DNA from: a virus
Taxonomy: Duplodnaviria > Caudoviricetes
Direction: 5' to 3' (one strand)
Virus record (IMG/VR): IMGVR_UViG_3300020049_010034
Coordinates: 32,914-96,913 of that record
Length of the DNA: 64,000 bases
The position numbers and the translations under genes were made by a program. The notes below the pieces were generated by a model, which worked only from the letters and a program-made list of their open reading frames with translations, was not told where the DNA came from and searched no databases. This document shows positions 2,811 to 38,743 of this stretch, one piece after another. Every line of letters starts with the position of its first letter. Position 1 is the stretch's first letter.

Positions 2811-3213
2811 TGAAGAATCATTAGCAGCACCTATAAAGAAGCCGAAAAAATACGCATGGAGCACTGACGGGGAGCGTTTCCAAGGAGATTCCGATTCAAA
2901 AGAAGACTGCGTGGAGGAAGCTCGGGCAATGTGCGATACGGATGAAGATTTTTTCTATGTTGGAGAATGCGCTCCATTCATTCCTGAAATCAGCTCTATC
3001 GATATCCTTGATCAGCTTGGCTGTGACGCGGTTGATTTTGCAGGTGAGGCAGGCGAGGAGTGGCTATCCTACATCTCCAAACAGGAAAGAGAGCTTCTGG
3101 ATTCAAAACTAGAAACCGCGTTAAGTGAGTGGCTGTCTGAAACGGGAAATAAGCCGACTTTTTTTGGTATTAAGAACATGGAAAAATATGCGGTCGAAAG
3201 GGGTTTGGAATGA
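2788..3213 (+). CDS. conserved phage hypothetical protein (acidic)
   Basis: GGAGG SD; YAWSTDGERFQG...CVEEA...GEAGEEWL pattern typical of phage early proteins. Confidence 0.7.
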   Translation: MKTMTIPNEESLAAPIKKPKKYAWSTDGERFQGDSDSKEDCVEEARAMCDTDEDFFYVGECAPFIPEISSIDILDQLGCDAVDFAGEAGEEWLSYISKQERELLDSKLETALSEWLSETGNKPTFFGIKNMEKYAVERGLE

Positions 3214-3638
3214 CTGCTGAAAAATTCCTCAGCGATTGTGAGGCCAGATTGAGAAAAGCTACGCCTGCGCCTTGGTATGTGGATGGCACAGAAGTAAGAC
3301 ATGATTTCGACCCGTATTCTGAAGAAACAGACTGTTCGGTTCAAATTTGTGAAGTCCATAGAATAAGCGATGAGCTAGATCGTAAAAAAGACGACAGAGA
3401 GTTCATCGCCCATTCTCGTTCAGACATCGAACGCTTAATCCAAATTGTGCGCGAAAAGAATAAAGATACTGAACGGCTTGAATGGATAATAAAAAATAGA
3501 AAAACCGTGGAAAAAACAGTCGAAGGATTCTGCGTTTACCCGTGTGCATGGGATAAATTTAAGCCAACACCACGCGAAGCCATCGACGCAGCAATGCAAG
3601 AATCCCGCGCAGACGAAATATCAGGAGGACGGAAATGA
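3210..3638 (+). CDS. Ead/Ea22-like protein with C-terminal DTERLEW...TPREAIDAAM module
   Basis: RLRKATPAPWYV...DREFIAHSRSDIERL resembles the Ead/Ea22 family; C-terminal module shared with 4913..5209. Confidence 0.65.
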   Translation: MTAEKFLSDCEARLRKATPAPWYVDGTEVRHDFDPYSEETDCSVQICEVHRISDELDRKKDDREFIAHSRSDIERLIQIVREKNKDTERLEWIIKNRKTVEKTVEGFCVYPCAWDKFKPTPREAIDAAMQESRADEISGGRK

Positions 3639-3874
3639 GAAGAACTCTAATTGGAGTAGTGGCTCGAAATTTTACAGAGTTTAAAAGACTTTTCAATAGA
3701 CACGCAAAAGCTGACCCAGAAGTGAGATTTATATATTTGTGCGATGTAACACGAATGCGCGGTTTTCGAGGCGAAATTCAATTATGGGGTGATTGGATGA
3801 AGAGAAAGGATTTTGATGAAATTCACAAAGAAATACAGATACGGACATCCAGTCTGATCGAGGATTCAAAATGA
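3635..3874 (+). CDS. hypothetical protein
   Basis: ATGA overlap, AGGAGG SD. Confidence 0.65.
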   Translation: MRRTLIGVVARNFTEFKRLFNRHAKADPEVRFIYLCDVTRMRGFRGEIQLWGDWMKRKDFDEIHKEIQIRTSSLIEDSK

Positions 3875-4179
3875 ACCCCATCAACCAAATCATTGCGGAA
3901 GGGAAAAGGCTTTGTGAGGGGGCTATTGGTGTCACAAACGATTTAGTGAATCGACAGGTTCCAATTGAAGAAGCGGGTGAACCGGAAGAATATGAAAAAT
4001 TTCTTGTTTATCACAATCCCTACAAAATGAAACACCTGTACGAAACTCTTGAGAAGGCGGTGAAGTTAGCTGAGCACTTTAAAGATCATGGGCACTTTGA
4101 GTATAACGAAGAGGGTCAAGAAGTTGATGTTTATCCAGCTCGTGAATTTTTAGCATTAATAGAAAAGCGGGGTGGATAA
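3871..4179 (+). CDS. hypothetical protein
   Basis: ATGA overlap, GAGG SD. Confidence 0.65.
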   Translation: MNPINQIIAEGKRLCEGAIGVTNDLVNRQVPIEEAGEPEEYEKFLVYHNPYKMKHLYETLEKAVKLAEHFKDHGHFEYNEEGQEVDVYPAREFLALIEKRGG

Positions 4180-4388
4180 TGAGCAGTATAGAAATCAAAC
4201 CAGCAAATAAATTTAATGTTGAAACGCTACTTGTAACGGATAACAGGAATGGCGCAGGGTTCGAGGTTTGGGCTTACCCAGATTGTGTTTTAATTCAAGA
4301 CACGCAATCAATGAACGTAACCTCAATAACCCAAAATCAATTCGACAAGATTTATAAATTTGTTAAAAAGCACGGGAAATTAAAATGA
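4179..4388 (+). CDS. hypothetical protein
   Basis: TAATG overlap with the upstream stop. Confidence 0.6.
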   Translation: MSSIEIKPANKFNVETLLVTDNRNGAGFEVWAYPDCVLIQDTQSMNVTSITQNQFDKIYKFVKKHGKLK

Positions 4389-4422
4389 AACCCACCCGAC
4401 TTATTTGCGAGGAAGGAAGTTT

Positions 4423-4710
4423 ATGAGTGGCGGCAGTTACGACTATATTTGCTTTAAACTTGAGGAGCTATCGGAAAGCATTCGAAATCAAGATACCGAC
4501 CCTCGTCGCGCTTCGTTCTCAAAGCTTTTAAAGCTTATTTCCGTGGCCATGCACGATATTGAATGGGTGGATTCTTGTGATTATAGTCAGGGCGCTGACC
4601 ATAAGGCGATCGACGCCGTCTTTTCGTTTCTTGGAAGTGATCCAGAAACAATTAAAAAGGCTCGTTCATTTGACGAGCTTAAAATAAGACTACAGGAATA
4701 TTTAAAATGA
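4423..4710 (+). CDS. conserved phage hypothetical protein
   Basis: MSGGSYDYI...AMHDIEWVDSCDY pattern common in phage early regions; GAGGAAGG SD. Confidence 0.7.
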   Translation: MSGGSYDYICFKLEELSESIRNQDTDPRRASFSKLLKLISVAMHDIEWVDSCDYSQGADHKAIDAVFSFLGSDPETIKKARSFDELKIRLQEYLK

Positions 4711-4734
4711 CCGAACGCAAAATAAAAGGTACTT

Positions 4735-4881
4735 ATGAGCTTTAGAAGATCTCGATGGTATAGATTTTTTGCTTGGGTGGTTGGCAAGACAAGCGAGTGC
4801 CGAGTGTGTTATAGAATGCTATGGCCAAGCGATACAATTTGTAGCCATGAATGCGCCACGGAATTTTTAGAACGACTTTGA
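4735..4881 (+). CDS. small putative zinc-ribbon protein (48 aa)
   Basis: Below the ORF-track cutoff; CRVC...CSHEC; AAAGG upstream. Confidence 0.45.
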   Translation: MSFRRSRWYRFFAWVVGKTSECRVCYRMLWPSDTICSHECATEFLERL

Positions 4882-28487: not shown

Positions 28488-29915
28488 ATGCCATTAAACC
28501 CAACCGATCGCCGTATTATTTCAAAAACAATCGTTGAAGCCGAGCTTCGCAAAGCCGAGATTGATTTGGCGATTACGTCTCTTCAAGCGGCGCTAGTGGA
28601 TGCTCAGGCAAAAGACGACGCCAACAAAAACATTATTGACAACAATAACTTGCAAGGGTTGCTCGCCGAGTACGGATTGCTGTCGGGCAACTTGAAAGTT
28701 TCGCTTACACCTTCAGAGTTAGAGGATGCCATACAAGCTTCTGCCAGCCTATCCCAATCAACTGGATCGAATACCTCTGGAAATTTATTTTACCCAAACA
28801 ATCCACTGGTTAGTCCTCCGTCCGTGTGGACTAAGTTAGTCCCTTACGCTGCCGTTTTAAGTGGGAATCAATTCTCTGGATCCGCTGTCACTCCCGTGAC
28901 TGGCGAGATATCTCAATTAAATACATTGATATCAACTATTACGAGTTTGATCACCGACTATTTTCCAGTGGAGCGAGGAACTGGCGAGCGAGCAAGCGAG
29001 GGCGGAACCTGTTCTTTGATATCAAACCCTCCGATCTTGGGGTCTGGGATTCCTGTCGTTGGGGCTATCACAAACGCTACCTGTACTGCTGGCGGTGGTG
29101 TTTGGAGTGCTGGCTCTGACAGCGTATTCGCAGCTCCTGATATCGTTGCCCGTGAGACGATCATAACTAACGCCATTACGGCTTTAGATACCTACCTGAA
29201 TAACTATGCTGCACTAGATTACACGAACGCGCCTGAGCCTCCTACGGCTGCTAGTAACGTCGCTGCCGCCGCATCAGTCACCACTTTGAAAAACGCCATT
29301 GCGACTTGGCTTGCAGCACCTGTGCCAACACCAAGTTTGGCCGTGACAGCTGCGGCCTTTTATGCTTTGAACCCAAACAACCGTTTTACTGGTGACCTAT
29401 TCACTGGAACTCTTGGGACTTTGCTGGTAGCTTTACAGACAAGACTTGCGCTCATATCCCCAAGAGCGACCCAGCTTCTAAACGCTTTAGGAACCTTGAC
29501 GCAAAACTTAAGCACTGGGGCTGTCTCAGGGTCTGGCTATCTGCTCAGTCGATATCTTTACGTCAACCTTCGGGTCGGCTTAATGGGCGGATCGGTAATT
29601 GCTTTAAACGGAATTAATCGAGCTATCCAAGGTCAGAACGACTTAAAAGCTGCAATCGATTCTGAGAAATTAGTCTACCAAACCCTAATGGACTGCTCGG
29701 CATTGGTAGCTCCAGCAAACGGAACTCAATACCTAAGTGTCAGAGATGCCACGGGTTTTACCGCTGGCCAGACTGTAACCCTGATAGCCGATCAAATGCC
29801 AGAGGCTTTACTTACGATCGACCAGATCGTTGGTAATCGTATTCGGTTTACGACCGAAACTCCCAAATTCTACTTCACAGATCAGTTCGCAAGAATTTTT
29901 TTCGATAAAACATAG
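28488..29915 (+). CDS. virion structural protein (baseplate region)
   Basis: Ala/Thr-rich, follows the spike gene; C-terminal LSVRDATGFTAGQTV beta domain. Confidence 0.6.
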   Translation: MPLNPTDRRIISKTIVEAELRKAEIDLAITSLQAALVDAQAKDDANKNIIDNNNLQGLLAEYGLLSGNLKVSLTPSELEDAIQASASLSQSTGSNTSGNLFYPNNPLVSPPSVWTKLVPYAAVLSGNQFSGSAVTPVTGEISQLNTLISTITSLITDYFPVERGTGERASEGGTCSLISNPPILGSGIPVVGAITNATCTAGGGVWSAGSDSVFAAPDIVARETIITNAITALDTYLNNYAALDYTNAPEPPTAASNVAAAASVTTLKNAIATWLAAPVPTPSLAVTAAAFYALNPNNRFTGDLFTGTLGTLLVALQTRLALISPRATQLLNALGTLTQNLSTGAVSGSGYLLSRYLYVNLRVGLMGGSVIALNGINRAIQGQNDLKAAIDSEKLVYQTLMDCSALVAPANGTQYLSVRDATGFTAGQTVTLIADQMPEALLTIDQIVGNRIRFTTETPKFYFTDQFARIFFDKT

Positions 29916-29955
29916 ACTTCTCACATTTAATACGATAATCTAATCTTTAGAAGAG

Positions 29956-30216
29956 GTGCGTATGCCTGAACTCGAAAGACTGATCAACATCCGTGTAATG
30001 GCTCATTTCGATTATATGTATCCAAGAATTTCATCTGTCAAAAAACAGAAAGACTTTCTTCGTGCAGCACAAGATTACTGGGGTGGTAAAGAAACTCACG
30101 GTAGGCTTGGCGAAGGATATCTACTGTTTGAAGATATGGTGGATGAAGTTTATATGAAAACGATTCGTCGGTTTGGTGGCTTTGGCGGTGACATTCACTC
30201 GCTTTACGACACCTGA
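29956..30216 (+). CDS. hypothetical protein
   Basis: Start GTG 29956 or ATG 29962 (GAGG SD). Confidence 0.6.
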   Translation: MRMPELERLINIRVMAHFDYMYPRISSVKKQKDFLRAAQDYWGGKETHGRLGEGYLLFEDMVDEVYMKTIRRFGGFGGDIHSLYDT

Positions 30217-30223
30217 TCAAAGT

Positions 30224-30302
30224 GGCCTCGTAGCTCAGAGGTAGAGCGTTGCAAGCTAAGCTCTTGCAAAGGTCACTTGTTCGAATCAAGTCGAGGCTGC
30301 CA
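30224..30302 (+). tRNA. tRNA-like gene with extended (7 bp) anticodon stem, identity undetermined
   Basis: GGCCTCG/CGAGGCT acceptor, G73, encoded CCA; D arm GCTC-AGAGGTA-GAGC; T arm ACTTG-TTCGAAT-CAAGT; anticodon arm TTGCAAG-CTAAGCT-CTTGCAA. Confidence 0.8.
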
Positions 30303-30316
30303 ATTGAAAGGAAAAG

Positions 30317-31897
30317 ATGGTAAAACAGAGAATCGGACTAGCATATGCAAAATTTTGTTTCAAATACAAACGCTTCCCTAGCCGAGCAGATTTAAAAACT
30401 ATTGGCTTTAGCCGAGACCAAGTTCGGGGTCAGTTTGGTAACTACGAAAACCTACGCCTGTTTGCCAAAGAAAATTGGCCTGATATGCTTGACGGTCTGC
30501 TTGATCCATCTCTGTTTGAAGATAAAGCCCATCTGGACTTAGTTAGCCGCACTAAAAAGTTCAAGCGATTTGTAGTAACCTCCGCCGTAGCTGGGGCTCC
30601 AGCTCACAAAGGTTTCTTAAACTCTCTTAAAAATTACTGTCGGGTCAATAAAGCGATGCTTTTAGTTATCCCTGCTAACTACGCTCTTTACGATCTTGAC
30701 CACGACTTAGTAAACGACCCAGAGGTTAGTGTGCTTTTTAAGCCCCTGTCTTTAAACCAAAACATCGTGATCGATCCAATTAAGATTGACCCTAAGCAAG
30801 TGGATCCCGTGGTTGGTTTAGATATTATCGGCAAAAAAAGAGAAGGCACTATTATTGTAGGATCTCCAAAGCAAAGACGCGTTGCCATCGCAAACTCGAA
30901 CGAAAAGATGGCTCGTATGATTCAGTCCACGGGAGCTGTAACAAAGCCTCGCTATGTGCCGTCAGACGGCATCATGAAGCGTCGAGATCGTTTAGCTGAC
31001 GAGCAGCACGTTATGGGTGCGGTCGTGATCGAAATCGCCGACAAGAAACTATTCCACTTCCGCAATATCGAAATGGGTACTGGCGGACGTTTCATCGATC
31101 TTTTTAAAAGATACTCTGAGCAGGAGGTTGTAAATGTTGGGTGCGAAGCGGTAGTTCAAGGTGATTATCACGTCCTATCCACCGATCCAGTCGTTGACGC
31201 TGCGGTTGACGAGATGTGCAAGCTTGGACGACCGAAATACCGAGTTCTACATGATTTCTTCGATGGCCAGTCGATTAACCACCATAACCTTCATAATAAA
31301 ATTGAACGAGCCATTTTGGCAAAACAAAACCTAATCGATCTACGCTCGGAACTCCAAGCAAATAAAAACGCTTTGGAGGCTATGCGTAAAAAGAAGACCG
31401 CCGAACAGATCGTTCTTGTAAAATCAAACCACGACGAGTTTTTATACCGATACCTAAACAAAGGAGACTTTACTGAGCAAAACTACGAGATTGCAACCGA
31501 GCTTATGCTGATTGCAATGCGTGGCTTAGATCCCTTGAAAGATGGTCTTGAACAGCTTTTCGGTCTTAAGAAGGGTAAGGATCTTGTGTGGCTTAAACGG
31601 GATCAGGATTTCCGAGTTTGCGGAGTCGAGCTTGGAAGCCACGGCGATCTTGGGGCAAATGGTAAAAGAAACCCGGGCTCGAAGGGGATGTTCAAGGCTT
31701 ACGGCAAAAGTGTTTATGGACATTGCCATCACTCTGAAATTTGGCATCAAGCCATGTCAGTTGGAACCTCTACCTATATGCGCTTAGGCTACAACAAAGG
31801 GGCGTCTAGCTGGGATCATACTCAGTGTATTGTATACAAAGACGGTACGAGACAGCTTGTATCGGTGATTAACGGGGAGTGGCGTCTTGCTAAGTAA
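30317..31897 (+). CDS. T5 A1-like metallophosphoesterase/nuclease
   Basis: KRFVVTSA...HKGFLNSL, STGAVT, GDYH, PKYRVLHDFFD..SINHHN, SNHD, GSHG..GANG, GHCH, GYNKGASSW...Y.DG.R all align with my recollection of T5 A1. Confidence 0.85.
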   Translation: MVKQRIGLAYAKFCFKYKRFPSRADLKTIGFSRDQVRGQFGNYENLRLFAKENWPDMLDGLLDPSLFEDKAHLDLVSRTKKFKRFVVTSAVAGAPAHKGFLNSLKNYCRVNKAMLLVIPANYALYDLDHDLVNDPEVSVLFKPLSLNQNIVIDPIKIDPKQVDPVVGLDIIGKKREGTIIVGSPKQRRVAIANSNEKMARMIQSTGAVTKPRYVPSDGIMKRRDRLADEQHVMGAVVIEIADKKLFHFRNIEMGTGGRFIDLFKRYSEQEVVNVGCEAVVQGDYHVLSTDPVVDAAVDEMCKLGRPKYRVLHDFFDGQSINHHNLHNKIERAILAKQNLIDLRSELQANKNALEAMRKKKTAEQIVLVKSNHDEFLYRYLNKGDFTEQNYEIATELMLIAMRGLDPLKDGLEQLFGLKKGKDLVWLKRDQDFRVCGVELGSHGDLGANGKRNPGSKGMFKAYGKSVYGHCHHSEIWHQAMSVGTSTYMRLGYNKGASSWDHTQCIVYKDGTRQLVSVINGEWRLAK

Positions 31898-32758: not shown

Positions 32759-32947
32759 ATGAGGCCAAACAACAAAACGGCGAAGGTGGATAGGACAATG
32801 AATAACGAAGTTACATACAGCAAACTAATCAGCATGATGGATAACCCAGAAGGCGTTAAGCCAAGCGATCAGAAATGTTCTGAAAAGGACAAGTTCATCG
32901 AAGAGCTTCTTAAAAAAGAGCGATTGAAAGAGAAGGCTAAAAAATGA
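32759..32947 (+). CDS. hypothetical protein
   Basis: First ORF after the promoter; start may be internal. Confidence 0.5.
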   Translation: MRPNNKTAKVDRTMNNEVTYSKLISMMDNPEGVKPSDQKCSEKDKFIEELLKKERLKEKAKK

Positions 32948-35569: not shown

Positions 35570-35798
35570 CGCAACGATCGAAAGAAATTACAGAGTTTTT
35601 TACGATTTAGCTGATTCAGATGAGGCCGTAGAGGCTTTTGGTCAGTATTATCTGGACGATTATGGATATAAGCTTCCCGTGGATTTGATCGAACGGTACA
35701 AGGCCGCTCAGGAAACGTGGAAAGCTGTTCAGAGGGAGTTAAAAGCTATCTATGAGGATATGACTGGTCAGTACCGAAATGCGAAAGCTGACTGGTAG
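35562..35798 (+). CDS. hypothetical protein
   Basis: AAGG SD, overlap coupling. Confidence 0.6.
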   Translation: MNNATIERNYRVFYDLADSDEAVEAFGQYYLDDYGYKLPVDLIERYKAAQETWKAVQRELKAIYEDMTGQYRNAKADW

Positions 35799-35808
35799 AA
35801 ATAAAACT

Positions 35809-35838
35809 TTCCCATTTCCGAAAAAAAGATGATATATT
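35809..35838 (+). promoter_or_regulatory. extended -10 promoter for the tRNA-Gly/ncRNA unit
   Basis: TTCCCA (35809-14), TG-A-TATATT (35830-38); 6 nt separate the -10 from tRNA G1. Confidence 0.55.
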
Positions 35839-35844
35839 AATTAT

Positions 35845-35920
35845 GCGGTGGAGGTATCAAGACCTGATACGCTGGTCGTCCAGATCAGAGGGCAAGGTGC
35901 AATTCCTTGACACCGCTCCA
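35845..35920 (+). tRNA. atypical tRNA-Gly(TCC), predicted non-proteinogenic
   Basis: 76 nt cloverleaf: GCGGTG/CACCGC acceptor with G7.A66 mismatch, U73, CCA; 6-bp D stem GTATCA/TGATAC; anticodon arm CTGGT-CGTCCAG-ATCAG; T arm CAAGG-TGCAATT-CCTTG. Confidence 0.85.
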
Positions 35921-35925
35921 AAATT

Positions 35926-36112
35926 TTCCAGAAGCTTAGCGGCTTCAAGTACGCGTGACGGCGCGATGGGTAGGTAACCCCATTGAGAAAAGACTCGCCA
36001 AACTGTAGGCGTTAATTGTAGTAGAGAGTGAACGCATCTATAATGCGTTCAATGCTTGACTGCGGGCAATACTCGCAGCGGTTGGAACTAGCCTATTAGT
36101 TCGGTTTTGGAA
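35926..36112 (+). ncRNA. candidate multi-branched structured ncRNA
   Basis: No ORF; closing stem TTCCAGAA/TTTTGGAA, inner TCAAGTA/TGCTTGA, hairpins CGCG/CGCG, ATGGG/CCCAT, CGCC/GGCG, TGAACGCAT/ATGCGTTCA, CTGCGGG/CTCGCAG, GAACTA/TAGTTC. Confidence 0.6.
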
Positions 36113-36209
36113 CTAAAGTTTTCTTTAAAACGGTCTGATGTGAAACCGAGTCAGTTAGGTTGCGACGGCAGCTTCGGTTTATTTTAAAAACGCTATTAAA
36201 AAGGAAGCC

Positions 36210-36407
36210 GTGAAGAAAAGCGAAATGCTCGGAAAACTGTGGACTTTGTTATACAAGGAAACTGATTATTACGAAGAAGACCTAAAAGAGCTTTGTGAGC
36301 AGATCCTTGGCGTTTTAGAGCATGAAGGAATGCAGCCGCCAGCCCGCTTCATAGACGACGGAGACTTGGGATCCAAATATTCAAACGAATGGGAAAAAGA
36401 AGACTAA
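36210..36407 (+). CDS. hypothetical protein
   Basis: AAGGA SD; MKKSEM...LE.EGM.PP...WEKE pattern. Confidence 0.65.
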   Translation: MKKSEMLGKLWTLLYKETDYYEEDLKELCEQILGVLEHEGMQPPARFIDDGDLGSKYSNEWEKED

Positions 36408-36427
36408 GGTTTTGAAAAAGGTATAGT

Positions 36428-36742
36428 ATGCAGGATAAAGTGATAAGAGACGGAAAAGTGGCGGTTTTATATTCACCGGGTTTTGGGGCTGGGTGGTTTT
36501 CATCGAACAATGATGAGCGCCTTTTGTTTGATCCTATTTTGGTTAAATTAGTTGAGGAAGGTAAGGGTTCTACAGAAGAATTTGAGCAAAGATGTAAGGA
36601 ACTCAATCCAGCAGCTTATCTTGGTGCAGCGGACGATTTAGAAATCAAATGGGTGCCACAAGGGACTAGATTTGAAATTGATGAGTATGATGGTAGTGAG
36701 AATGTTAGATACTTATCGCCAGATGACGGGATTATTGCGTGA
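36428..36742 (+). CDS. conserved phage hypothetical protein
   Basis: GKVAVLYSPGFGAGW...L.I.WVP.GTRF.I.EYDGSE pattern. Confidence 0.75.
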   Translation: MQDKVIRDGKVAVLYSPGFGAGWFSSNNDERLLFDPILVKLVEEGKGSTEEFEQRCKELNPAAYLGAADDLEIKWVPQGTRFEIDEYDGSENVRYLSPDDGIIA

Positions 36743-36755
36743 ACACCGCGAAATT

Positions 36756-36802
36756 TATACGCAAACGCGTATAAACGCAAACCTATACGCAAACGCGTAT
36801 AA
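36756..36802. repeat. tandem palindromic direct repeat TATACGCAAACGCGTATAA x2
   Basis: Exact 19-nt copies at 36756-36774 and 36784-36802. Confidence 0.9.
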
Positions 36803-36872
36803 GATAGCTTGATGTCGCTACAAGCATTTGAATTAACATTATTGTTAATTCGAACGAATAATAAAGATCCTG

Positions 36873-36901
36873 TTGACTATCACGAAAAGCTGTTATATCT
36901 T
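36873..36901 (+). promoter_or_regulatory. sigma70-like early promoter
   Basis: TTGACT-17 nt-TATCTT. Confidence 0.65.
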
Positions 36902-36935
36902 GTTCTAAGGCATCGATAAATAGAAAGTAGGAAAG

Positions 36936-37148
36936 ATGAACAACTTAAAAGTCAACATTTTGCTAACGGCGATCAAAAACCACAGCTCTTATAATAACGT
37001 AAAAAATGAACGCGTCATGCGTACTTATTTTGCAGGTCTGTCTACTGACGGAAAAAAGCAATTCAATCAGTTTTTTATCGCACTCACAGGGAAGCCTTTT
37101 GAGCACTTCGCTGAATACAGCGAGGGCGGGGCGGAGAAACTAAAATGA
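36936..37148 (+). CDS. hypothetical protein
   Basis: AGGA SD after the promoter. Confidence 0.65.
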   Translation: MNNLKVNILLTAIKNHSSYNNVKNERVMRTYFAGLSTDGKKQFNQFFIALTGKPFEHFAEYSEGGAEKLK

Positions 37149-37483
37149 TTAGATGGCTTAAGGAACGATGGGTTACTTTCTGGCTTGGTAAACTTAAAGA
37201 AAAAGAGCTTCAGGTTGAAGATGCCGTTGCCCATATCGCGGTCGGCTCAAACCCAGAAAACTCATTCATAACGATTAGTCTCGACGGATATACCGATAGC
37301 TCTATTTTTGACCCCGAGCCCTATGCCGTGAACGGATCGGATCGTTTGATTAGGTATCTACAAAGCCATCAAACTGTGGTTGTGGACGATGACGGCAACC
37401 CTCATTTTGTCCACACCCTCTCACATATCTATATTGAGAAAAAGTACAGAACCGTAAAAGTATCTTGGCGACAGCAACGATAA
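37145..37483 (+). CDS. hypothetical protein
   Basis: GGAG SD, ATGA overlap. Confidence 0.65.
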   Translation: MIRWLKERWVTFWLGKLKEKELQVEDAVAHIAVGSNPENSFITISLDGYTDSSIFDPEPYAVNGSDRLIRYLQSHQTVVVDDDGNPHFVHTLSHIYIEKKYRTVKVSWRQQR

Positions 37484-37499
37484 ATGTAATATTATAAGT

Positions 37500-37591
37500 G
37501 TGTGGTTCCGTGATGTATGTCGATTAAAGCCCGACAGCAAACAAAGGCGGATTAAACGGTGGGGCGTATAGCTCCAAAAGAACGGCCATAT
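37500..37591 (+). ncRNA. candidate small structured RNA upstream of tRNA-Met
   Basis: Closing stem GTGTGGTT/GGCCATAT; hairpins TGTCG/CGACA and GGGGC/GCTCC; CCGT/ACGG; possible GCC/GGC pseudoknot. Confidence 0.45.
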
Positions 37592-37596
37592 TTTGA

Positions 37597-37671
37597 TGCG
37601 GAATGGTGGAGTGGTTACCATGCGAGCCTCATAAGCTTGAGACGCAGATTCGATTTCTGCTTCCGCTTCCA
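37597..37671 (+). tRNA. tRNA-Met(CAT), initiator-like acceptor stem
   Basis: TGCGGAA/TTCCGCT with a 1.72 mismatch; CGAGC-CTCATAA-GCTTG; GCAGA-TTCGATT-TCTGC; encoded CCA. Confidence 0.9.
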
Positions 37672-37688
37672 ATTTTTGAAAGGTATAA

Positions 37689-38486
37689 ATGAACGTCGGA
37701 AAAGCTCATCAGCGGATTGTTCGTGAAGAAAAGGCAAAAACTGAGCCTACACCAGACGTTGATCTATCACCATCTAACGCTGTCGTAAAACCAATCGATC
37801 GCGAAACAGCTAAAAAAGTTATCTTAGAATACGAATGGCTTGGCTGTATGCCCGCGATTGCAAAATATTATTATGGCCTATACTTTGGCGATCACTTGGC
37901 AGGTGTGGTTATCTATGGTGATGACTACTCCGAAAACTTGGGAACTTGGGATAAATACGGCTTCACTGGCAAGATGATCCTGCTTAATCGCGGCGCTTGC
38001 GTTCACTGGGCTCCGTCTTTTGCGGGCTCAATGCTGATCAGACGTAGTATGGATCTTCTACCCAAAAAATACGAGGTGATTACTTCAACGGTGGATGAGC
38101 TTGCGGGCGAGATCGGAACTATCTATCAAGCCTGTGGGTTTCACTATGTGGGGTGCATGAGGGCTAAGAACCCTAATATCAAGAATGGCGCTCGGGATCG
38201 TTTTGCCGTTTTGATTGATGGGAAGCTGTACGGATCGAGATCTATCCGCGCAAAGATCGGCTCCCAACGTAAAGCTGATATTTTACAACATTTTGCTGGT
38301 AGCAAGATTGAGTTTATTAAGCAAAAAGCTAAGTCTCGGTATTTTGCTTTTCGTGGTAGTCGTAAGATTTTAAAAGAACACTTGCAATCAATAGCCCATC
38401 TGATAGAAGCTTATCCTAAGAGGGTGTCGGATCACGCCCCAGAAACATTGAAAACCCATCGATTGGGTGAAAGGCACGGAATATGA
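37689..38486 (+). CDS. mom: Mom-family DNA adenine-modifying enzyme (GNAT fold)
   Basis: VKPIDRETAKKVILEYEWLG, YGLYFGDHLAGVVIYG, LNRG, APSFAGSMLIRRS, VDELAGEIGTIYQACGFHYVG (GTIYQA.xF.Y.G Mom signature), KSRY. Confidence 0.8.
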   Translation: MNVGKAHQRIVREEKAKTEPTPDVDLSPSNAVVKPIDRETAKKVILEYEWLGCMPAIAKYYYGLYFGDHLAGVVIYGDDYSENLGTWDKYGFTGKMILLNRGACVHWAPSFAGSMLIRRSMDLLPKKYEVITSTVDELAGEIGTIYQACGFHYVGCMRAKNPNIKNGARDRFAVLIDGKLYGSRSIRAKIGSQRKADILQHFAGSKIEFIKQKAKSRYFAFRGSRKILKEHLQSIAHLIEAYPKRVSDHAPETLKTHRLGERHGI

Positions 38487-38743
38487 GTAAGAAATCTAAG
38501 ATGTTTACATTCCCTATCGAGCAAGCTCGGTGTGGCGATATCCTTTTGCAAGATCTAAAAACAGGTTCGATAGACTGGTGGTCGCCAGACCCTAACGCTA
38601 TTAGAATCAAGAACAGTTTCTACAAGCTTCACCACAAGGATACGGTTGAAGCGCCGAATCCTGATGGCTTAAGCACGTTCTTCCCAGTCAAGGAATTTTT
38701 GGAGATAGCCAAGGATATCGAAAAGTTAGCGGGTAAAAAGTAA
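38483..38743 (+). CDS. hypothetical protein
   Basis: ATGA overlap with the mom-like gene. Confidence 0.6.
   Translation: MSKKSKMFTFPIEQARCGDILLQDLKTGSIDWWSPDPNAIRIKNSFYKLHHKDTVEAPNPDGLSTFFPVKEFLEIAKDIEKLAGKK

Follow-up and report, generated by a model that had tools for sequence, protein, structure and literature searches.

The stretch of viral DNA studied here (64,000 nucleotides (nt), hereafter the window) corresponds to positions 32,914 to 96,913 of the IMG/VR record IMGVR_UViG_3300020049_010034, from a virus of the Caudoviricetes. Two genes located on its plus strand are considered. The first one, at 37689..38486, encodes a Mom-family GNAT protein of 265 amino acids (aa), predicted to be a Gly-tRNA-dependent modifier of DNA acting at N6 of adenine. 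The second one, at 35845..35920, specifies a tRNA-Gly(UCC)-like RNA of 76 nt with an encoded CCA end, recognized by its cloverleaf parse and by a family covariance model, and belonging to a phage-only, Mom-linked family. An initial annotation of this DNA had proposed that the two genes act together, the RNA supplying the enzyme with glycine. We describe both partners, the family of the RNA and its association with mom genes, and then discuss the possible function of the pair and its relationships with known systems.

The Mom-Family Protein

In phage Mu, Mom moves glycine from Gly-tRNAGly onto the N6 atom of adenine in double-stranded DNA, and an on-base rearrangement follows (Silva et al., bioRxiv 2023; Nat Commun 2026, PMC13219725). 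This is the donor that the initial annotation had named, correctly. All three E. coli tRNAGly isoacceptors serve Mu Mom, Gly-tRNAAla does not, and residues R111 and S124 of the enzyme are essential. The tRNA is treated as a host resource and no phage tRNA is mentioned (Silva et al., PMC13219725). A helix-turn-helix (HTH)-like insertion in the GNAT fold, at Mu residues ~175-209, is also needed for activity.

The open reading frame (ORF) at 37689-38486 matches the Pfam family PF25680 “Mom” with an E-value of 1.3e-20 and 74.4 bits (cut-off 27.1), over profile positions 3-202 of 202, that is, as a full-length Mom. It is the sole Mom of the 96.9-kb record, whose completeness is estimated at ~60%. 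Identity to Mu Mom is low: a phmmer search of the window protein against the PDB found no solved relative, and a profile was needed. Profile A3, built from 35 homologues of the window Mom, matches Mu Mom (PDB 8bv8) with an E-value of 7.4e-17 over residues 28-232. In the resulting alignment, R101 and S114 of the window Mom correspond to R111 and S124 of the Mu enzyme, R101 falling on the arginine of LNRMW and S114 on the alanine of the S124A crystal construct, an assignment that assumes an offset of 9 in the SEQRES of 8bv8, itself deduced. The equivalents of both residues are invariant in all 35 homologues. The region of the HTH-like insertion aligns with 8bv8 as well, the window clade being 12 residues longer there. 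At the level of the alignment, the window Mom keeps the catalytic residues. The Mom GNAT identity put forward in the initial annotation is borne out by the Pfam match together with the profile match to 8bv8, the latter being the kind of comparison with Mu Mom by which the annotation had proposed to check it.

The tRNA-Gly-Like RNA of the Window

The RNA encoded at 35845-35920 folds as a four-arm cloverleaf of ~76 nt. Its acceptor stem, GCGGTGG/ACACCGC, is made up of six pairs and a G7.A66 mismatch, and is followed by A8 and G9. The D stem (GTATC/GATAC) has five base pairs (bp) and closes the loop AAGACCT, which is devoid of GG and lacks G18G19. The anticodon stem, CTGGT/ATCAG, carries the loop CGTCCAG, with G33 and the anticodon UCC. 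After the variable region AGGG come the T stem, CAAGG/CCTTG, containing the pairs C49-G65, A50-U64, and A51-U63, and the T loop TGCAATT (U54-G55-C56). The 3' end consists of U73 and the encoded CCA.

In E. coli, G3-C70 is part of the identity set of glycyl-tRNA synthetase (GlyRS). The set is complete in the window RNA, which has G1-C72, C2-G71, G3-C70, U73, C35, and C36 (for the bacterial GlyRS determinants of tRNAGly other than G3-C70, see PMC7826273). The RNA departs from the set of universal tRNA nucleotides (U8, G18-G19, U33, and T54-Psi55-C56). The initial annotation had described a tRNA-Gly(UCC) retaining what GlyRS reads and having lost what translation needs; every element that it listed on either side, including the three T-stem pairs given above, is found at 35845-35920.

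Standard tools overlook this RNA. With default settings, the only tRNAs found in the window by ARAGORN are a tRNA-Leu at 30224 and a tRNA-Met at 37597, 35845-35920 being left uncalled. The Rfam tRNA model (RF00005, gathering threshold 29 bits) gives no match to the RNA in a 96-nt query, even at E<=10. A tRNA-Gly(tcc) is called by ARAGORN only at 90% thresholds, which yield ~1.7 extra (false) calls per 100 kb of real phage DNA. The family covariance model R1, built from relatives of the RNA, scores it at 81 bits (E 6.5e-16), a scale on which ordinary tRNAs reach at most 34-37 bits. In the sister contig L070, the RNA is 94% identical and its flanks are 76-85% identical.

Relatives of the RNA and Covariation

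Relatives were first sought in 63 IMG/VR Mom loci, in which Mom is 49-59% identical to that of the window. These loci gave no match to the RNA by BLAST and showed no synteny with the window; ARAGORN, applied to 60 of them, found no tRNA whatever in 58. In the Mom flanks, ARAGORN at relaxed 85-90% thresholds, an insensitive test, made no Gly call, and a strict cloverleaf scan had no match. A relaxed cloverleaf scan retrieved six flank regions, and its four “control” matches turned out to be the same RNA beside a second Mom. At that point the first survey seemed to refute the proposal; this changed with the closer relatives of Mom drawn from a search of 5.8 billion proteins.

The first copies (window, L070-L072) already displayed compensatory changes, with T5-A68 replaced by C5-G68 and further cases in the stems of the anticodon and T arms. 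A search pattern derived from these copies matched at least 120 stretches in metagenomes and 19 stretches, in 18 records, in IMG/VR. Parsing of the pattern matches listed left at least 116 instances and at least 55 distinct sequences, all from uncultured phage DNA; the distinct relatives among the matches listed make up the 55-sequence set used below. Across this set, 99.8% of the stem cells are paired, and all 11 stem pairs left free by the search pattern show double (compensatory) changes. Double-change cells amount to 249, vs. 66 after shuffling and 22-35 with slid partners. RNAalifold recovers the same cloverleaf from the alignment unaided and adds a covarying 32-38 pair (A-U 25, C-G 22, U-A 4), by which the anticodon loop is reduced to a 5-nt pentaloop, N-N-C-C-N. 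From these patterns of substitution, the RNA is judged to be genuine, structured, and subject to selection.

The family has remained unannotated because the Rfam tRNA model recognizes only one of the 21 members tested, that one at 38 bits. R1 is itself narrow and misses the L234 type and divergent forms; its 29-31-bit matches in L002, L011, and L037 were retained solely on account of their position immediately beside mom, their GCG...CGCU ends, and their NCC loops. As for the distribution of the family, no match was obtained at that sensitivity when the region and two family variants were compared by blastn with 50,697 GenBank phages. A pattern scan of 185,579 prokaryote genomes gave 11 matches, all due to chance and located in coding DNA, and no true copy. 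As sampled, the RNA family is confined to uncultured phages.

Association of the RNA With mom Genes

All seven contigs with a Mom at least 60% identical to that of the window (60-94%) carry the RNA 6-254 nt from mom. In L070, which is syntenic with the window and whose Mom is 94% identical, a second Mom paralogue ends 16 nt upstream of the RNA, and mom follows 254 nt downstream of it. L071 and L072 have a Mom 78% identical in otherwise unrelated genomes, and their RNAs precede the ATG of mom by 20 nt and 6 nt, respectively. The RNA is found 15 nt before mom in L230, 13 nt before it in L233, 7 nt before it in L234/235, and 33 nt after it in L231/232. The neighbors of mom differ among these contigs and include an HNH gene, Acb5, Cpn60, a tail tube gene, and a HAD phosphatase. 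Promoter, RNA, and mom are the only DNA that L071 and L072 have in common. The other proteins common to the window and L072 are 27-41% identical vs. 78% for Mom, which points to the transfer of RNA and mom as a unit.

The association is also seen from the RNA side. In the scan of IMG/VR for the RNA, which was blind to Mom, 16 of the 18 records encode a protein recognized by the Pfam model of Mom, and the two Mom-less ones are fragments of 4.4 and 6.9 kb. The RNA is located 62-94 nt upstream of mom in G011, G014, G016, G018, and G022, and 7-34 nt downstream of it in G008, G013, G015, G021, and G023. It is far from mom in G019, G020, and G024 (11-14 kb) and in G006 and G009 (26-30 kb). In the fetched loci, RNA and Mom share their strand in 35/35 pairs. 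Mom is absent from 29 control loci whose pattern match forms no cloverleaf. More than 8,000 Mom contigs were recovered from two viromes (Silva et al., PMC13219725). Given the approximate sizes of these collections, the base rate of Mom would be ~1% or less. Almost no other tRNAs accompany the RNA, the association being with Mom and not with tRNA arrays, and no other conserved partner gene was seen in the loci compared (63 survey loci, L070, L071 vs. L072).

The RNA is tied to Mom genes. The initial annotation had linked the two by proximity and chemistry only; this basis has been outdone by repeated genomic association from the Mom side and from the RNA side. The co-occurrence of mom with aberrant tRNA-Gly genes, for which it had suggested a survey of phages, is seen in seven of seven contigs with a close Mom and in 16 of 18 RNA records.

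Several arrangements of these loci deserve description. In L070, the second, divergent Mom paralogue (2847-3725) has 292 aa and is ~32% identical, and the RNA lies between the two Mom genes. L098 has the same two-Mom layout, and two to three Mom genes are also present in G016, G022, G006, and L032-35. In G011 (L203), positions 29048-30874 hold a tandem RNA-mom duplication: the two RNAs are identical, and each is followed, at 67-94 nt, by a Mom gene of its own. In L075 (10847-10921, minus strand), L091, L134, L135, L170, and L144, the conserved C-terminal PYPKR of Mom abuts G1 and the mom frame stays open across the entire RNA gene. Excision of the embedded RNA would deprive the mom message of its stop codon, which could be a regulatory feature. 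Finally, Pfam names related to anti-defence occur beside the Mom modules of relatives, namely Acb5 (L231, 2951-3754), an AcrVA2-like protein (P0009 locus), and HNH endonucleases, which suggests that Mom modules lie in anti-defence islands.

Conserved and Variable Features of the RNA

The acceptor identity set is tested only by 13 copies that were retrieved through Mom and found without the RNA pattern. In these copies, GCG...CGC-U is invariant, acceptor pairs 4-7 and the D stem covary, and CCA is encoded in 11 of 13. The other positions can be followed in the 55-sequence set. C35-C36 is present in all 50 anticodon loops of seven nt, and every other loop contains “CC”. G53-C61 and C56 are nearly invariant, and A66 is kept opposite G7 in 52/55 sequences.

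The remaining parts of the RNA vary. Position 33 is other than U in nine of the 50 seven-nt loops and position 34 is A in 16, so that the anticodon ACC is frequent. Besides the seven-nt form, anticodon loops of 5, 6, and 8 nt occur, as well as one of 22 nt in L231. The T loop is non-canonical in 40/55 sequences, GGCAGTT being the commonest, and the D loop has no GG in most of the 55 relatives. No family member has a tight G49-U65 pair. A 66-nt form devoid of D arm is carried by L032-35. Two members stand at the extremes of the family. In the RNA of L231 (4741-4829), the 22-nt anticodon loop is AU-rich, and this loop still has ACCA at its end. The 66-nt RNA of L034 (6172-6237), without D arm, has a 7-bp anticodon stem and a 5-nt loop, and it comes directly after a second Mom gene.

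In these alignments, the retained set is the GlyRS identity set (PMC7826273), and the relaxed set corresponds to the needs of decoding, of the tRNA elbow, and of the ribosome. Such a conservation pattern fits an RNA that would be chargeable but would not decode.

Organization of the Locus

A promoter-like site (35809..35838, plus strand; TTCCCA, 18 nt, TG-n-TATATT) ends 6 nt before G1 of the RNA. A scan of the promoter consensus is not significant by itself (seven sites vs. 5.0 expected). A TG-extended -10 element, 6 nt upstream of G1, is found in five family members, the window, L070, L072, and L098 among them, and a -10-like TAnnnT hexamer occurs 5-9 nt upstream of the RNA in nearly all 13 Mom-retrieved copies. 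The position of these -10-like sites suggests that transcription starts at or close to the mature 5' end of the RNA.

In the window, mom is downstream of the RNA, on the same strand and at a distance of 1.77 kb. Four small ORFs, also on the plus strand, lie in between (36210-36407, 36428-36742, 36936-37148, and 37145-37483). The initial annotation had stated this layout in the same terms, with a distance of about 1.8 kb. The alignment with L070 shows that window positions 35797-35921 correspond to 3690-3814 and 37493-38489 to 3871-4867. The stretch that separates the RNA from the tRNA-Met/mom unit (35922..37492, plus strand; 1.57 kb) is lineage-specific and is replaced by 56 nt in L070. Because L070 lacks this stretch, the 1.8-kb gap with its four ORFs reflects a local rearrangement; elsewhere the module is compact. 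The neighboring ORFs were useless for finding relatives, homologues of the 104-aa ORF being found only in non-syntenic, Mom-less phages. A terminator-like hairpin (36157-36184) stands at the end of a ~260-nt non-coding stretch that follows the RNA. This stretch (35926-36184), part of the 1.57-kb segment absent from L070, is GC-richer and structured and has no Rfam match.

The initial annotation did not mention that a canonical tRNA-Met(CAU) (37597..37671, plus strand; ARAGORN, and 57.2 bits with the Rfam tRNA model) ends 17 nt before the mom ATG. It is kept at the same place in L070. It is absent from L071 and L072, only L070 sharing it, so that it is not part of the conserved RNA-mom module. 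Its first acceptor pair is U1.U72. The other tRNA of the window, a 79-nt tRNA-Leu(AAG) at 30224-30302, has a normal score (Rfam 54.5 bits).

A Possible Glycine Carrier for Mom

The 76-nt RNA may be a phage-encoded derivative of tRNA-Gly that keeps the features read by GlyRS and has been freed from the rules imposed on decoding tRNAs. Host GlyRS would charge it with glycine, and the phage Mom would take the glycyl group from the charged RNA and place it on N6 of adenine in phage DNA. The glycyl adduct would then rearrange to carbamoylmethyl-adenine, by which restriction would be blocked. EF-Tu and the ribosome would make little use of the RNA, leaving Mom a pool of glycine with no competition from translation. 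RNA and mom would make up a module of two parts, in most cases equipped with a promoter of its own, and this module would travel from phage to phage as a unit. From the genomic data, we infer charging by GlyRS, use as a donor by Mom, poor use by EF-Tu and the ribosome, and the rationale of a reserved pool. That host GlyRS charges the RNA and that Mom takes glycine from it seems to us reasonably likely. The RNA is probably Mom's own glycine carrier, and its altered body probably keeps it out of translation. The interpretation given in the initial annotation is in this sense supported genomically.

Several points weigh against this carrier role. In the 55-sequence set, the invariance of G1-G4, G6, G7, A8, the D stem, and CCGC-U was imposed by the search pattern. 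Some members, with U33 and a TTCGATT T loop, look suited to decoding and receive a tRNA-Gly call from ARAGORN, so that translation may persist in part of the family. Folding, end processing, or the action of GlyRS might also be impaired by A8, by the lack of the G18G19/U55 elbow, and by the 5-nt loop. All three host isoacceptors serve Mu Mom, so the chemistry would not require a private donor. In the window, the RNA is distant from mom (1.77 kb) and apparently has its own promoter and terminator. A cis-acting role, too, would be consistent with same-strand adjacency and with mom frames that extend into the RNA. Finally, the RNA was detected within 6 kb in seven of the 63 Mom loci at 49-59% identity, which represent four lineages (L002, L011, L037, and L032-35), a count to be read knowing that the model misses divergent forms and that the RNA can lie beyond 6 kb. 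The RNA implies Mom and Mom does not always imply the RNA, which is the pattern expected of an accessory factor.

Alternative Explanations

The alternative that survives best is that of a cis-acting element of the mom transcript. The tRNA-like fold would then be a processing or regulatory signal controlling a potentially toxic enzyme, for example an RNase P/Z cleavage site, an mRNA end-maker, or a Mom-binding site for feedback, and would carry no glycine. In Mu, mom is under tight translational control by Com. The constant location of the RNA on the mom strand (35/35), often 7-100 nt from mom, as well as the many relatives in which G1 directly follows PYPKR and the reading frame traverses the RNA, are in line with such a role. 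However, the RNA occurs on either side of mom and can be 11-30 kb from it (G006, G009, G019, G020, and G024), and in the window it is 1.77 kb away, behind promoter-like and terminator-like sites of its own. Moreover, C35-C36, U73, and the encoded CCA would be needless for a processing signal, yet they are kept while the rest drifts. Hence, we regard a cis-acting element as unlikely.

To a lesser extent still, the RNA could be an ordinary phage tRNA-Gly that supplements codon usage in translation and hitch-hikes with mom. The cloverleaf, the Gly anticodon, and the members with U33 and a canonical T loop that ARAGORN calls tRNA-Gly, one of which reaches 38 bits with Rfam, would be explained, and tRNAs are common in large phages (18 of them stand beside mom in L015). 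Nevertheless, the window copy has A8, G33, and U54-G55, no G18G19, and no score at all with the Rfam tRNA model. In the family, 1/21 members is recognized by Rfam, the 32-38 pair covaries, ACC is frequent, and loops range from 5 to 22 nt. Almost no other tRNAs are nearby and the link is to Mom, not to tRNA arrays. We therefore give little credence to a decoding role as the general explanation.

Slightly less credible again is a decoy or anti-defence RNA, that is, a tRNA-Gly mimic located in the anti-defence island of mom, which would soak up or block a host factor. A tRNA-targeting nuclease or a GNAT toxin acetylating Gly-tRNA may be proposed as targets. Some GNAT toxins do act on charged tRNA, and some are noted as tRNAGly-specific (cited in PMC13219725), and the Mom modules of relatives stand among anti-defence-type genes (Acb5 in L231, AcrVA2-like near the P0009 locus). 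However, it is to Mom in particular that the RNA is linked, in contexts that are unrelated and include the tandem RNA-mom duplication, and no other conserved partner gene was seen.

The two remaining candidates were rejected. A decaying tRNA pseudogene or a chance cloverleaf would account for a score below all tRNA finders at default and for an ARAGORN call made only where false calls appear, but the conservation in L070, the compensatory changes in 55 relatives, and the 81-bit R1 score leave this reading next to no probability. An attP or tRNA-fragment origin was dismissed in view of the full cloverleaf, its compensatory evolution, and the lack of a true copy in the prokaryote genomes scanned.

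If Mom does draw its glycine from this RNA, the consequences extend beyond the window. The modification of DNA by Mom from a charged tRNA was established only in 2023-2026, its authors assuming that the phage scavenges host tRNAGly; in much of the virosphere, the Mom system would instead be two-component. The aminoacyl-tRNA pool would be naturally split between translation and another pathway, a partitioning so far documented only for staphylococcal cell-wall synthesis. The pair would also offer a compact RNA-enzyme system to probe which parts of a tRNA are needed by GlyRS and by a GNAT transferase, with natural variants ranging from near-normal tRNAs to 66-nt forms without D arm. The whole RNA family has escaped genome annotation, being rejected by tRNA finders. 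In the literature searched, no Mom-linked phage tRNA was found described, and a jumbo-phage survey that lists Mom enzymes mentions none. On balance, we lean slightly toward the broader view that viruses contain widespread, unannotated tRNA derivatives that carry glycine to a DNA modifier and are reshaped for GlyRS and Mom rather than for EF-Tu and the ribosome. The reshaping would consist of a 5-nt loop (32-38 pair), an altered elbow, and sometimes the loss of the D arm. If true, these derivatives would be the first viral tRNAs for genome hypermodification.

Comparison With Known Systems

The closest counterpart of the window enzyme is Mu Mom. Both are PF25680 GNAT proteins with the essential arginine and serine, and the same chemistry is expected by homology. 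The difference lies in the tRNA: Mu relies on host tRNAGly, whereas the window phage and many uncultured phages pair mom with a deformed tRNA-Gly-like gene.

For the RNA, the nearest parallel is provided by the non-proteogenic tRNAGly NP1-3 of Staphylococcus, which feed FmhB/FemA/FemB, aminoacyl-transferases acting outside the ribosome (PMC7826273). These tRNAs bind EF-Tu weakly and have a weak T stem with A49-U65, U50-A64, and A51-U63 (PMC7826273). A51-U63 is present in the window RNA too, whereas the 49-65 and 50-64 pairs differ. Furthermore, the staphylococcal species are chromosomal, restricted to one bacterial genus, directed to peptidoglycan, and still recognizable as tRNAs. In contrast, the phage RNAs are viral, have a DNA-modifying partner, and are more degenerate, with A8, the 32-38 pair, loops of 5-22 nt, and 66-nt forms without D arm. 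The RNA family was found in uncultured phage DNA only, outside any lineage restricted to staphylococci. The likeness is one of analogy and not of common descent.

With ordinary phage tRNA genes, the window RNA shares a phage-borne cloverleaf of ~75 nt with its own promoter. It differs from them in that it falls below the Rfam threshold, lacks universal nucleotides, and is linked to one enzyme gene, not to tRNA arrays or codon usage. Finally, the tRNA-like structures at the 3' end of plant RNA viruses are also viral tRNA mimics, charged by host synthetases and non-decoding. However, these structures belong in cis to an RNA genome and have an acceptor arm that forms a pseudoknot, whereas the window RNA is a separate gene of a DNA phage and forms a true cloverleaf.

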